From assembly GCA_947073645.1 (NCBI GenBank), contig CAMTMK010000009.1, positions 812 to 64,811 on the forward strand: 64,000 nt of DNA, read 5' to 3'. The notes under the pieces were generated by a model that did not search any database, was not told where the DNA came from, and saw nothing but the letters and a program-made list of their open reading frames with translations. A program made the translations under genes and the position numbers. Below are positions 5,099-23,252 of this stretch, piece by piece. Numbering within the stretch: position 1 is the first letter of the stretch; the number at the start of each line of letters is the position of its first letter. Source of the stretch: an uncultured bacterium (GTDB lineage: Bacteria > Cyanobacteriota > Vampirovibrionia > Gastranaerophilales > Gastranaerophilaceae).

Positions 5099-6172
5099 AT
5101 GAACATCATCAATATAAAGGATAAAAATCTGTTTTATATCGGCGGAGTTGTGCGCGACGAGATTTTGGGGCGCAAATCTTTTGATATTGACATTACTTAT
5201 GTTGGAAACGCGATTGAGTTTTGCTCAAAGTTTGGTGATGTTATTCAAGAAAATCCTGATTTCGGCACTGTTCGTGTGAATGTTGATGGGCAGGAAGTGG
5301 ATTTTGCTTCAACACGTTCGGAGAGTTACCCGCACAAAGGGCATTTGCCTGTTGTGGATAAAATCGGATGTTCGTTGAAAGAAGATGTTTTGCGCCGAGA
5401 TTTTACGATAAATGCGCTTGCCAAAAATACTTTAACAGGTGAAATTATTGATTACACCGGCGGATTAGAGGATTTAAAAAATAAAAAACTGAGAGTTTTG
5501 CATGACGAAAGTTTCATTGACGACCCGACAAGGATTATCCGCGGGCTGAAGTTTTCCGTTCGTTTCGGGTTTGAGCTTGACGAGTATACAAAGCATTTGC
5601 AAGACGAATATTTGAGTAATGTGAATTACGATATGAGCTACAAACGCGTGAAAAAAGAGCTTATTGAAACATTTAACCTCAATTCTCAACTCGCATTTGA
5701 AAAGTTTATAAATGAGGGAATTTACAAGCTTTTGGGGGATTGTGAGGTTACACTTCCGTCTGTGAATATTCAACAGCTTGTATCCGATTATGGTGCAGAA
5801 ATACCATGGATTATTTATTCAGGTGTGTTTGATTTGTCGCGTTTGCCGTTGACAAAAATTGAACAAAAAATTCTTGATGATATGCCCGAAAAGCTCGAAG
5901 GTGATTTTGAACTTTACAAAGCATTTGAAAATGTGCGTATTGAATCTGTTCTTTTGTATGCATTAAAAGATGAAGCAGGGGCAAGACATTATCTTGATAA
6001 TTTGCGCAAAATAAAAATTTCTGTAACAGGCAAAGACTTGCAAGCTTTGGGAATTAAACCGTCGCCAAAATATCAGGAAATTTTTGATATGTTATTGAAG
6101 GAAAAATTAGCAAATCCTTTAATGACAAAAGACGATGAAATTAGATTAGTTACCAAGGATATTTGTCATTAA
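5099..6172 (+). CDS. cca: Class II tRNA nucleotidyltransferase (CCA- or A-adding enzyme)
   Basis: GGVVRD, DIDI, RRDFTINAL, DDPTRIIRG motifs. Confidence 0.88.
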   Translation: MNIINIKDKNLFYIGGVVRDEILGRKSFDIDITYVGNAIEFCSKFGDVIQENPDFGTVRVNVDGQEVDFASTRSESYPHKGHLPVVDKIGCSLKEDVLRRDFTINALAKNTLTGEIIDYTGGLEDLKNKKLRVLHDESFIDDPTRIIRGLKFSVRFGFELDEYTKHLQDEYLSNVNYDMSYKRVKKELIETFNLNSQLAFEKFINEGIYKLLGDCEVTLPSVNIQQLVSDYGAEIPWIIYSGVFDLSRLPLTKIEQKILDDMPEKLEGDFELYKAFENVRIESVLLYALKDEAGARHYLDNLRKIKISVTGKDLQALGIKPSPKYQEIFDMLLKEKLANPLMTKDDEIRLVTKDICH

Positions 6173-6856
6173 TTTCCCAACCGTTGCGTTTTAAAAGTTC
6201 CGTACAATAAAACATAGCATTGCCGGAGGCACATTTTTGCAATACTACATCATCTGACATATTTTCACCTAATGTAAAAAATCCGTTTTGAGAATTAAAC
6301 ATTATCGGGAAAATATCATGTCCAAATCTGTTTTCACCAGAACCGCCATTTATGTCAATCATTATTATGAACATTCGGACAATACCTGTTGTTCCGTCGC
6401 CGTTATTTGCAAATATCAATGTTGTACCGTTTACAAGTTCAGCAAAATAGTAGTAGTAATGAGGTGGTGTATAATTATAAATACCGTTTTTATATCCTTT
6501 TTCTTGCAGTTGCGCACGTTTAGGCGGTGATGTTAGTTGTAAATACGGCAAAATATATTTGTCTGCAAATATTTTAACAAATTGTGTGTCTTGAATGTCT
6601 TCAACCTGTAAGCCCGAGTTTGCTTCCGACCAGCCGGAATAATCTCCATATTCTGTCTGTGCCATTTGAACTGCTTGATATAACTGGCTATATGCAGTTT
6701 TTACTCTTGTTGATACAACTTTCTTTTGATGTTTAGTGATTAATGTTGGAATAGTTATTGCTGCAACTACACCAATAATACCTAAAGTAATAAGGACTTC
6801 CGCTAAAGTGAAACCTTCGGGGGGGGGGTGCTTATGGCTTTTGATACTGTTTTCAT
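6150..6856 (-). CDS. Type IV pilin-like protein (prepilin N-methylation motif); frameshifted at a C10 tract in the leader (putative phase-OFF)
   Basis: ATG at 6856 with GGAGA RBS reads MKTVSKAISTPPP then stops; the frame from 6818 reads EGFTLAEVLITLGIIGVVAAITIPTLI and joins ORF 6150-6665; C8 or C11 would restore the frame. Confidence 0.88.
6819..6828. repeat. G10 homopolymer (C10 on coding strand)
   Basis: Counted directly: ttcGGGGGGGGGGtgc. Confidence 0.95.
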
Positions 6857-6912
6857 ATAAAAATCTCCTAATTATTTATTTATTATTTATGATGGTTTAA
6901 ATTTTGTCAAGT

Positions 6913-7479
6913 TTAAAGACTGTTTATTTTTTTAACCGTCTCTCTGATATATTGTTTTACAGCAGGTGTGATTAACAAATCAGGTTCTGCCATTGTAAAT
7001 TCGTCTAAGATGATTACTCCGCGTTTTAAATCTCCGCTTTCAATATACAATAATCCAAGCATTATTTTGTTTAAAGGGTTTTCATCTGAGCTGTATTCAA
7101 CCATTTTTTCAGAGATAAGTCCTAGAACCTTATAACAATGTGCCAAATCTTTATGATATTTGAAATTCAAACCGAATTGTTTCAAGGCATCTTCATAAGG
7201 TTCTTTTGCCATTTCCGGATGTTCAATTGCCATGTAAGCATCGCCGATATTATTGTAGTAAACGGCTGTGCCTTGAGTGTTTGGGTTCAAACTTATTGCA
7301 ATCTTGAACTCTTGTATCGCCGCATAGTAGCAATGTTCGTTCATATAGCGAAGTCCCATGTTATTATGTAAGAAAGCGTTTTTGGTCGCATCAATTGTGT
7401 ATGTTTCAGGTTTTCTGTAGGCTGATGTGACAAAACTCAAGAGTATTAACGATATAACAGCAAGTTTTTTATAATTCAA
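6913..7479 (-). CDS. Exported TPR-repeat protein
   Basis: Signal-peptide-like N-terminus; TPR patterns YYAAIQEFKIAISLNP, YYNNIGDAY. Confidence 0.75.
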   Translation of the reverse strand: MNYKKLAVISLILLSFVTSAYRKPETYTIDATKNAFLHNNMGLRYMNEHCYYAAIQEFKIAISLNPNTQGTAVYYNNIGDAYMAIEHPEMAKEPYEDALKQFGLNFKYHKDLAHCYKVLGLISEKMVEYSSDENPLNKIMLGLLYIESGDLKRGVIILDEFTMAEPDLLITPAVKQYIRETVKKINSL

Positions 7480-8395
7480 TCTCTAACCCTTCGTATGCAA
7501 GAATTATATTTTCATCAGTTTTGTAATGTTCTTTTATGCCGTTAAGCTTGTTATCATCATAGCTTGGGTCAAAGTGGAAAAATACCAGTTTTTCTGCATT
7601 TGCTTGTTTTTTGCTTTCTACTGCCATTTCAAAAGTTGAGTGGCCGTAACCTTGTTTTGGTGCAAATGTATCCAGATAATCTTCTGTTGTATATTGTGCA
7701 TCATGGATTAGAAGGTTACAGTTGCGCGCAAAGTTTGCCAGTTTTTTATCTCCGCCTTCGTAGCTTTCTTTGTCTGTTGCGTATACAAGAACTTTATCTT
7801 TGTATGATATTTTATAAATTAAAACACCTTCCTGCGGATGAGCATAAGAGCGGTAGCAGGTGATTAAAACATCGTCACCTTCTACTTTTGCATCATTTTC
7901 GTTTTCGATACGTTTGATAATAGGCGGTTCTCCATGGCGAAGGATTATGCCTTCGGTTTCGTTTAAGTCTTTGATATTTAAGTTTCCTGCAATGTCGCCC
8001 AAATCAAGCGGGAATGATTTGCCAAAAAGCAGATTTGCAAGTTCATCCGAAAGACTTTCATTATAATTAACGTTTCCGAAAACATTAATCTGAGATGATG
8101 GAATGTGAAGCGGTCTAAAGAATGTAAAACCTTGGAGGTGGTCTTGATGAATATGAGAAATCAAAACAGTTGCATTCATTGGAGTTCTGTCAGACGGATT
8201 AATGCCTGATGCAATATGTTTGCCTAAAAGTTCGTTTCCGATATTGATTAAGCCTGTTCCTGCATCAAGTATTATCAAATGACCGTTGACATTGATTTCT
8301 ACACAAGATGTGTTCCCGCCGTATTGGAGAAAATCTTTGTCTGCTATAGGATAGCTTCCTCTTACACCTCTGAATTTTACTTTAAATTCGCTCAT
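7469..8395 (-). CDS. Metallo-beta-lactamase-fold hydrolase
   Basis: GVRGSYP, GGNTSCV, DAGTG, SHIHQDH (HxHxDH), HDAQY, GHS, FHFDP. Confidence 0.88.
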   Translation of the reverse strand: MSEFKVKFRGVRGSYPIADKDFLQYGGNTSCVEINVNGHLIILDAGTGLINIGNELLGKHIASGINPSDRTPMNATVLISHIHQDHLQGFTFFRPLHIPSSQINVFGNVNYNESLSDELANLLFGKSFPLDLGDIAGNLNIKDLNETEGIILRHGEPPIIKRIENENDAKVEGDDVLITCYRSYAHPQEGVLIYKISYKDKVLVYATDKESYEGGDKKLANFARNCNLLIHDAQYTTEDYLDTFAPKQGYGHSTFEMAVESKKQANAEKLVFFHFDPSYDDNKLNGIKEHYKTDENIILAYEGLEIEL

Positions 8396-22300: not shown

Positions 22301-22332
22301 GAGAGGATAACAAATGTCATCCTCTCTTATTT
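22295..22332. terminator. Bidirectional terminator at the tRNA 3' end
   Basis: AAATAAGAGAGGAT / ATCCTCTCTTATTT 14-bp arms. Confidence 0.8.
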
Positions 22333-22405
22333 ACCCGAGATGCGATTCGAACGCATGACCTACCGCTTAGAAGGCGGTTGCTCTATCCAGCTGAGCTACT
22401 CGGGC
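22332..22405 (-). tRNA. tRNA-Arg (anticodon UCU), CCA not encoded
   Basis: GCCCGAG acceptor, TAGCTCAGCTGGATAGAGC D-arm, ACCGC-CTTCTAA-GCGGT anticodon arm, GTTCGAATC T-loop. Confidence 0.96.
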
Positions 22406-22500
22406 AAAACGTATTTAATTTACATCCACTATATTAACATGAAAATTTTTTCTTGCAAGAGGAAATTTTTACTTTATAATTATTACTGAAAGGAGAGGTT

Positions 22501-23252
22501 ATGAAAGATTTTAATCAACTTGTCGGGGGGGGGGCACTCATAGCGTAACTCCTGCATTCACGTTAGCCGAGGTTTTAATTACTATCGGCATTATTGGTGT
22601 CGTTGCTGCAATGACTATGCCTACTCTTATGGCAAGCACTCAGAAAAAAGAATTGCAAACAGCTTTAAAAAAGGCTTATTCGACTTTGAGTCAAGCACTT
22701 ATGATGTATGAAAATGATAATGGCTGGCCTGTTACGTCTAAGTTAGAAGTTGGACAGTTAAAGCCGATTTTGATGAAATATATTAATACTGCAAAAGATT
22801 GTGGAATAGGTACTGAGGGAGATAAAGCCTGTATGCCTAATAAAGCATACGTAAGCAATCCTGATGATTATAAAGATATATATAAAACATTTAATGGTAA
22901 AAATAATATTAATTACGCATTGTTTGATGATGGTCAGTTTGTAATGAATGACAATATGTTCGTAATGATTGAAAATGGTTATCAGTCGAGGTATCCGGAT
23001 GCGACTGTTGCAAGGGTATGGATTTCTGTTGATGTTAATGGTTTTAATAAAAGACCAAATCGCTTTGGACAGGATTTATTTATGTTTCAAATAAATGATA
23101 AGGGTGCACTTTTGCCTATGGGGGCTGAGGGAACTGAATATTACAGTGAAAATGATGCTTATTGCTCTTCTGTATCATCAAGCAGTTTAAATGGTGCAGG
23201 GTGTACTGCAAATGCATTGAATGATGAAGATTTTTGGAAGAGTATGCCGTAA
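22501..23252 (+). CDS. Type IV pilin-like protein; frameshifted at a G10 tract in the leader (putative phase-OFF)
   Basis: AGGAGAGG RBS, ATG 22501 MKDFNQLVGGG then TAA; the frame from 22539 reads HSVTPAFTLAEVLITIGIIGVVAAMTMP and joins ORF 22611-23252; G8 or G11 restores the frame. Confidence 0.88.
22525..22534. repeat. G10 homopolymer
   Basis: Counted directly: gtcGGGGGGGGGGcac. Confidence 0.95.

Follow-up and report, generated by a model that had tools for sequence, protein, structure and literature searches.

We analysed a window of 64,000 nucleotides (nt) of DNA (34% G+C) from a Gastranaerophilales bacterium, which was matched in mouse-gut metagenomes. Two of its genes, hereafter gene 1 and gene 2, resemble type IV pilin genes, and each carries a tract of ten G or C in the leader that precedes the (G/A)↓FTLAEVL motif (the arrow marks the predicted cleavage site). 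In our judgment, the two tracts are probably contingency loci, that is, hypermutable homopolymers by which type IV pilin-like genes would be switched ON and OFF through slippage in their N-terminal extension. This reading is carried by the anatomy of the leaders, the recurrence of the same layout across the family, the change of length at sister tracts and the purifying selection acting on the genes. Taken together, these observations suggest that the tracts of genes 1 and 2 themselves switch, that the leader is cleaved and that the cell may benefit.

Homopolymer tracts in the leaders of two pilin-like genes

The whole window contains exactly four G/C tracts of at least 6 nt. Every one of them is 10 nt long, and lengths of 6-9 do not occur. 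GGGGGGGG (G8) matched 12 times, all within the four tracts, against 0.14 matches expected from shuffled sequences; the tracts are thus far longer than composition predicts, as is the case for repeats at contingency loci. A loose motif scan recovered only three pilin-like genes in the window, dispersed among housekeeping genes. Two of the four tracts were found in the leaders (about 40-55 nt) of two of these three genes, and the other two in glycosyltransferase genes. The positions of the tracts are far from chance.

The sequence-only reading had placed a 10-nt G/C tract between a good ribosome-binding site (RBS) with its ATG and the motif in both genes, and none in a third paralogue. Our inspection confirmed these coordinates and the lack of a tract in the third gene (Table 1). 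In gene 1, the tract is followed by GAAGGT and then by TTC ACT TTA GCG GAA GTC (G↓FTLAEV); the codon of the G at -1 starts at 6815, 41 nt from the ATG, one base short of frame. In gene 2, the motif is encoded by GCA TTC ACG TTA GCC GAG GTT (A↓FTLAEV), and the A at -1 has its codon starting at 22554, 53 nt past the ATG, so that this gene is likewise one base short. Both genes had also been claimed to be OFF at a length of 10 and ON at 11 or 8, and translation of each length agreed. At 10, the ATG frame reaches a stop after 17 codons in gene 1 and after 15 codons in gene 2; at 8 or 11, it gives full products of 234 or 235 amino acids (gene 1) and 249 or 250 amino acids (gene 2) with FTLAEVL. Hence, in each gene a one-base change of the repeat within the reading frame toggles the full-length product. 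Neither gene has an ATG, GTG or TTG in the motif frame over the stretch from the last stop codon ahead of the motif to the motif itself.

A TTG at 22520-22522, directly ahead of the gene 2 tract, was not adopted as the start, there being no RBS nearby. It lies in the pilin frame at G9, and the gene caller chose the same TTG in L097, an orthologue from another species (MSGGGTHS...). If this TTG were functional, lengths 9 and 11 of gene 2 would both be ON and only 10 and 12 OFF.

Table 1. Features of the pilin-like genes and of the tract-bearing glycosyltransferase genes in the window
Feature	Position	Strand	Details
Pilin-like gene 1, frameshifted at the tract	6150..6856	-	N-terminal methylation motif and DUF6613 (33.3 bits, above cut-off)
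Gene 1 mature part	F at 6812 down to W; stop 6150-6152	-	From translation
Gene 1 leader C10 (G10 on + strand)	6819..6828	-	28 nt past ATG, 5 nt ahead of G↓FTLAEVL codons
Gene 1 RBS, ATG and leader up to the G(-1) codon	6816..6869	-	RBS AGGAG 6865-6869; ATG 6854-6856; from sequence
Gene 1 promoter-like site	6882..6910	-	TTGACA, 17 nt, AATAAT; 11/12 consensus matches
Gene 2 promoter-like site	22453..22480	+	TTGCAA, 16 nt, TATAAT; 10/12 matches; present too in orthologue L097
Gene 2 RBS	22492-22498	+	GGAGAGG; ATG at 22501
Pilin-like gene 2, frameshifted at the tract	22501..23252	+	Between tRNA-Arg (22331-22406, -) and alaS (23265-25895)
Gene 2 leader G10	22525..22534	+	24 nt past ATG, 19 nt ahead of A↓FTLAEVL codons
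Third pilin-like paralogue	37432..38013	-	No tract; canonical short leader MKNA↓FTLAEVL; DUF6613 64.2 bits
C10 in truncated glycosyltransferase-like remnant	45696..45705	-	Near 5' end of short remnant (45477-45817); OFF at 10
C10 in 583-amino-acid open reading frame (45814-47565)	46642..46651	-	Reads PPP; linker between GT2 and TupA ATP-grasp domains; ON at 10

The N-terminal motifs of gene 1, gene 2 and the third paralogue are EG↓FTLAEVLITLGIIGVVAA, PA↓FTLAEVLITIGIIGVVAA and NA↓FTLAEVLITLGIIGIVAA, respectively. All three have the features of a class III signal peptide: the leader ends in G or A, residues +1 and +5 are F and E, and the alpha-1 segment is hydrophobic over about 20 residues. When a profile of the family was compared with the PDB, it matched the alpha-1 helices of type IV pilins and pseudopilins with E values between 2e-8 and 1e-4, the best match being Geobacter PilA-N (2e-8), followed by PilA, PpdD and GspG. 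Gene 1 and the third paralogue exceeded the DUF6613 (PF20318) gathering cut-off of 24.3 bits. Gene 2 gave no match to PF20318 at E <= 0.01; it aligns with the family, is 31% identical to gene 1, and its orthologues at 97-98% identity have a precomputed PF20318 match, faint in the 97% one. The AlphaFold2 model of the third paralogue (predicted local distance difference test score 73) has a pilin-type N-terminal helix at residues 7-59 (53 residues) and a small alpha/beta head. A Foldseek search of this model against the PDB gave nothing significant, with the type IVb pilin of S. Typhi as the best match (E = 1.3). Among the window open reading frames (ORFs) scanned, none matched a pilus-machinery family. 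A Gastranaerophilus genome was reported to encode pilA, pilB, pilC, pilT and pilD (PMC5877343). Homologues of the pilin-like family in the databases number thousands, and their DNA-level sources are Candidatus Gastranaerophilales/Melainabacteria from animal guts.

The suspicion that annotation would truncate such genes and lose the motif proved right: the ORF list and the public proteins hold only products of 171 amino acids (P0001) and 213 amino acids (P0121). As gene callers systematically truncate or mis-start genes with a tract, the pilin repertoire of this lineage is under-annotated, and many database entries are fragments or carry spurious long N-termini.

Recurrence among relatives and changes of tract length

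To place the two genes in a wider context, we surveyed 80 listed loci (605 kb) of Gastranaerophilales/Melainabacteria, all from species other than that of the window. Eighty-eight pilin motifs had enough upstream sequence to be scored, and a tract was counted when at least 8 G or C occurred within 600 nt upstream on the coding strand. Such a tract was present in 45 of the 88 genes, with ON and OFF states mixed; the placement in leaders is not accidental. The relatives share one layout: an RBS, an ATG, about 8-10 codons, the G/C tract, an open spacer and (G/A)FTLAEVL. The RBS-bearing ATG is usually 24-31 nt ahead of the tract (28 and 24 nt in the window). The pilin frame is open from tract to motif in 41 of the 45, over spacers of 2-429 nt, while the chance of 100 open codons in such AT-rich DNA is P ~5e-4. 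Tract lengths were 8 (three genes), 9 (four), 10 (29), 11 (eight) and 12 (one), and the coding-strand base was G in 33 and C in 12. Nearly all of the 49 G/C tracts in the relatives' loci are of the pilin-leader kind. Read from the RBS-bearing ATG, 37 genes could be scored: 5 were ON, 25 needed one more nucleotide and 7 needed one fewer. Furthermore, a set of 240 database homologues included 43 that were called as ON proteins with GGG or PPP in the leader, and 18 that are fragments without the motif.

Individual relatives of both window genes follow the same pattern. For gene 1, which adjoins a CCA-adding enzyme gene, relative L105 adjoins such a gene as well and has C10 needing +1; L104 has C13 needing -1; and L106 has G10 and is ON with a leader of 98 amino acids. 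The gene 2 orthologues of other species also lie directly upstream of alaS and have the tract at the same place, with G9 in L097 (78% identity) and G10 in L098 (75%). The shift needed is +1 at G10 (window and L098) and -1 or +2 at G9 (L097).

The spacers between tract and motif translate into recurring strings (SPQPSP..GEG, CHCEG.KRPSQSQD and RFTLHSSLKK in leaders of L001-L106), which resemble translated intergenic repeat elements (proteins P0003, P0004, P0010, P0014, P0142 and others). Since these repeat-like spacers are open, leaders of about 100-180 amino acids are called in the databases. A palindrome, GCTACGCACGTAGC, was found in the window at 528-546, directly after the acpP stop codon. 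The same palindrome occurs inside a pilin leader in 9 of the 80 listed loci (L003, L007, L014, L019, L030, L043, L046, L066 and L072), exactly 39 nt ahead of the -1 codon in 8 of the 9, and also within the leader in L099 and L101. It translates there as 'GATHV', usually after a further copy of 'AFTLAE', and has the appearance of a repetitive extragenic palindromic (REP)-like element that was inserted, with duplication, into the 5' ends of pilin genes. The stretch past the tract of gene 2 (GTHSV) resembles this leader reading.

Changes of length were seen directly at sister tracts. A homologous pilin has G11 (OFF) in L001 and G10 (ON, protein P0011) in seven other assemblies. BLAST comparison of four of these seven with L001 gave 99.5-99.9% identity over 2.5-3.7 kb with the tract as the only gap; in one comparison there was a single further difference in 2.5 kb. 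In the window, surface-polysaccharide glycosyltransferase genes, which are classic targets of phase variation, gave a similar result. Tract lengths per sample (X1 to X28) were read from Logan consensus contigs, which drop minority variants. The tract at 46642 was 10 in the window, X2, X3, X25 and X27 and 11 in X15 and X16. Hence, the GT2-TupA gene is in the ON state in one part of the mice and in the OFF state in another, as is classical for phase variation. The tract at 45696 was 9 in X2, 10 in the window, X27 and X28, 12 in X15 and broken in X25, and the contigs of X1, X3 and X16 end exactly at it; by our reading of the sequence, the remnant would be in frame at 8 or 11. The neighbouring 559-amino-acid ORF (43627-45306) has the same two domains (GT2 and TupA ATP-grasp) in reverse order.

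Both genes are under purifying selection. The frames past the tracts are open for 222 codons (gene 1) and 233 codons (gene 2), for which the chance is P ~1e-8 (about 4e-8 for gene 1). For the mature part of gene 2, the ratio of nonsynonymous to synonymous substitution rates (dN/dS) was ~0.11 against the 75-78% orthologues, with dS ~1.2-1.3; it was 0.37 against the 97% strain, a value that comes from only 10 differences. Gene 1 gave dN/dS of 0.12-0.22 against its relatives, with dS saturated. Judging by these rates, genes 1 and 2 are not pseudogenes. Such selection indicates that the proteins have been made and selected, even though gene 2 was out of frame in all of its consensus alleles.

The proposed switch and the alternatives to it

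We propose that each gene would be transcribed constitutively from its own sigma-70-like promoter (in genes 1 and 2, the ATG follows the promoter-like site at a distance of 21-26 nt) and that translation would begin at the good RBS and ATG. The ribosome would reach the G/C tract after about 8-9 codons; at length 10 it would be out of frame and stop after about 15-17 codons (OFF), and replication slippage to 11 (or 8) would restore the frame (ON). The prepilin leader, together with its poly-Gly or poly-Pro stretch and any inserted spacer, would presumably be cut at (G/A)↓F by prepilin peptidase. With the leader discarded, the switch would leave the mature protein unmarked. About half of a large paralogous family would be under such control, mostly one step from ON, and a population would then express shifting subsets of pilin-like proteins. 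RNA contigs from four RNA runs covered alaS or nothing, and gene 2 was not covered in any of them. G and C tracts are interchangeable, ON, +1 and -1 states coexist, and lengths change at the DNA level, all of which fits slippage at contingency loci.

However, several observations weigh against this reading. The tract of gene 1 was C10 in all three samples checked (X1, X2 and X3), and that of gene 2 was G10 in six (X1, X2, X15, X25, X27 and X28) and also 10 in nine runs of the 97%-identical strain. Both stayed at 10 even in samples where the glycosyltransferase tracts differ. The sequence-only reading had named a lack of length heterogeneity as its refutation, and this check came out half against it: length varied at the sister tracts and in the homologous pilin, but the two pilin tracts of the window never departed from 10 in the samples checked. 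Read from the RBS-bearing ATG, each of the gene 2 orthologues is OFF, and no ON allele of gene 1 or 2 was found among 5.8 billion database proteins. In addition to C10, the X2 and X3 contigs (from one study) have one C missing at 6626-6627 inside gene 1, so that the tract alone could not restore the gene in that strain. Moreover, the gene 1 locus was not found at >=97% identity in X15, X25, X27 and X28, all of which carry gene 2 unchanged. Given the extra deletion and the absence from four samples, gene 1 is at least dispensable, and its absence where gene 2 is present means that the pilin repertoire differs between strains. The assignment to pilins has weak points as well. The Pfam N_methyl model (PF07963), which has 27 positions, scored 18.9, 17.6 and 20.6 bits against a gathering cut-off of 21.2, a near miss. 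The leaders, if ON, would be 15-19 amino acids long in genes 1 and 2 and up to about 100 in relatives, and they have E at -2 (gene 1) and A at -1 (gene 2).

The last point of this kind is the excess of genes one base short of ON among the relatives (25 versus 7 and 5), which simple neutral slippage does not predict. Long tracts are known for a deletion bias, and the excess may fit such a bias together with populations dominated by OFF cells. Alternatively, evolution could have set the phase of the genes in such a way that a tract at the mutational mode (10) is OFF, yet one step from ON.

The same excess can be read as programmed recoding. In that case, the DNA one base short would be the working state, and RNA polymerase slippage with gain of a G or C, or -1 ribosomal frameshifting, on the tract (G GGG GGG or C CCC CCC) would give a constant low yield of pilin, with no DNA switching needed. 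The 25 of 37 scorable members would need exactly +1 nt, equal to a -1 ribosomal shift, whatever the tract length (G9 to 10, G10 to 11). The pilin tracts of the window are invariant while the tract in the pseudogene-like remnant drifts, and purifying selection is strong despite every orthologue being OFF. Nevertheless, 12 of the 37 do not fit, since 7 would have to shift the other way and 5 are already in frame, and L097 with its G9 needs another shift than the window and L098. A recoding site would conserve the same frame offset among homologues, and here the offset differs both across the family (25/7/5) and among the gene 2 orthologues. The interchangeability of G and C suits a DNA-level mechanism better than tRNA-specific frameshifting, and changes of length were seen directly in DNA at sister tracts. 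An Rfam search of the sequence found only tRNA and tmRNA (transfer-messenger RNA), with no frameshift element or other RNA family in the leaders. We consider recoding unlikely, yet a serious rival.

The setting of the tracts raises the related question of whether they are more than passive slippage sites. The GC skew of the window is +0.08, and the G of all four tracts lies on the + strand, which is the G-rich one. Among relatives, the G of the tract is on the G-rich strand of the locus in 40 of 49 (p = 9e-6). With the G tract on top, the base at -1 is C in 45 of 52 tracts, that at +1 is C in 43 and that at +2 is A in 36, that is, C-G(n)-CA, and this context holds whichever way the gene is directed. 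In leaders of the C type, the flank encodes a conserved ...A(L/F)x(I/V)(A/C)PPP peptide. Simple slippage does not predict such a strand-specific context. Because of this context on the G-rich (probably leading) strand, the 25:7:5 bias and pilin tracts fixed at 10 beside a drifting pseudogene-like one, the tracts might serve recoding that yields a constitutive low-level pilin repertoire, or might form a dedicated switch cassette that spreads from gene to gene by copying or is acted on by a factor specific to the lineage. We regard either version as rather doubtful.

Decay of inactivated paralogues, with the tract being only the place where a frameshift happened to occur, seems quite improbable for genes 1 and 2. 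Both genes were OFF in all samples with no ON allele in the databases, and gene 1 has a second frameshift in X2/X3 and is absent from other strains, as expected of decaying genes. However, decay does not account for frames of 222 and 233 codons open past the tract, for dN/dS of ~0.1-0.2, for a tract conserved in presence and position across species with dS above 1, or for the same layout in half of the family. That the tracts are really 11 nt long (always ON) and were under-called by one through polymerase chain reaction or Illumina stutter would suit the excess of one-short states and the four window tracts of exactly 10, but is hardly credible, as different assemblers and studies gave the same 10 (contig names of SPAdes, MEGAHIT, IDBA and Logan), lengths of 11, 12 and 13 were called elsewhere, the 583-amino-acid glycosyltransferase ORF and several pilins are in frame at 10, and L001 differs cleanly from its seven sister assemblies (11 versus 10). 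The G10 tracts were also considered as 10-N scaffold gaps or as the product of a length cap; this was rejected, for independent assemblies agree, one tract is in frame and lengths of 8-13 occur elsewhere.

Comparison with known systems and further observations

Phase variation by repeats in a discarded leader is not new. In gonococcal pilC, a poly-G within the signal-peptide sequence is textbook knowledge and gives phase-variable expression (PMC13017665), and G tract lengths of 9-20 are listed for pilC (PMC5953494). Similar to pilC1/pilC2 of Neisseria gonorrhoeae and N. meningitidis, the genes reported here encode proteins associated with pili and have a G tract in an N-terminal signal region that is presumably cleaved off, so that they would be turned ON or OFF with the mature protein unaltered. 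However, PilC is a Sec-exported tip/adhesin protein with a classical signal peptide, whereas here it is the pilin-like subunits themselves that have the tract, in a class III (prepilin) leader. Moreover, here there are dozens of paralogues per lineage in uncultured Gastranaerophilales, and switching is suggested by sequence.

Repeats in the leader-peptide region are also found in the opa genes of Neisseria (CTCTT repeats) and in outer-membrane protein genes of Helicobacter pylori (CT repeats). Loosely, these resemble the present case in that a surface multigene family is switched independently by leader repeats, resulting in combinatorial expression; their repeats are penta- and dinucleotides and their products outer-membrane beta-barrels, in contrast to the homopolymers and pilins here. 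Opa is listed with CTTCT repeats, genic (PMC5953494).

In Campylobacter jejuni, contingency loci with poly-G occur in genes for capsule, lipo-oligosaccharide and flagellar glycosylation. Its AT-rich genome has few G/C tracts of about 8-12 nt, almost no intermediate lengths, and surface glycosyltransferases among the targets, which is similar to the present window (tracts at 45696 and 46642). To our knowledge, C. jejuni has no comparable pilin family, and we know of no description of C-G(n)-CA flanks or of tract placement on the G-rich strand as a C. jejuni feature. The displayed pilin is varied from a stored repertoire by the R64 pilV shufflon and by pilE/pilS gene conversion in Neisseria. These systems are similar to ours in that variation concerns which pilin is shown, but they rely on recombination or inversion to bring a variant into a single expression site, while here complete genes each have their own promoter and frameshift switch (for pilE/pilS, see PMC5953494).

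In the literature on phase variation or pilins of Melainabacteria/Gastranaerophilales, and on homopolymers combined with a prepilin leader, we found no prior description. New are thus the lineage in which the switch occurs, its placement in prepilin leaders of pilin-like subunits and its scale, with about half of a large family affected, while the type of mechanism is well known. Gastranaerophilales (Melainabacteria), which are related to Cyanobacteria, are widespread in guts and uncultured. Leader switches in about half of the DUF6613 family and tracts in polysaccharide genes point to stochastic surface variation in the style of Neisseria or Campylobacter in a commensal, probably directed against host immunity or phages. 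The system would also add an independent case to the rule that the mature protein escapes change when a repeat switch sits in a leader that is later discarded, and would bring prepilin leaders under this rule.

Two further features of the window were observed. A 228-amino-acid ORF (21044-21730, +) has in its C-terminal half a strong match (E = 3e-23) to serum amyloid A (PF00277), a eukaryotic domain, which is unusual for a bacterium, and has weak Phage_Mu_F / VG15 matches at its N-terminus. A tmRNA gene (63732-64000, -; Rfam RF00023, 62.5 bits) lies at the end of the window, where its 5' end is lost.

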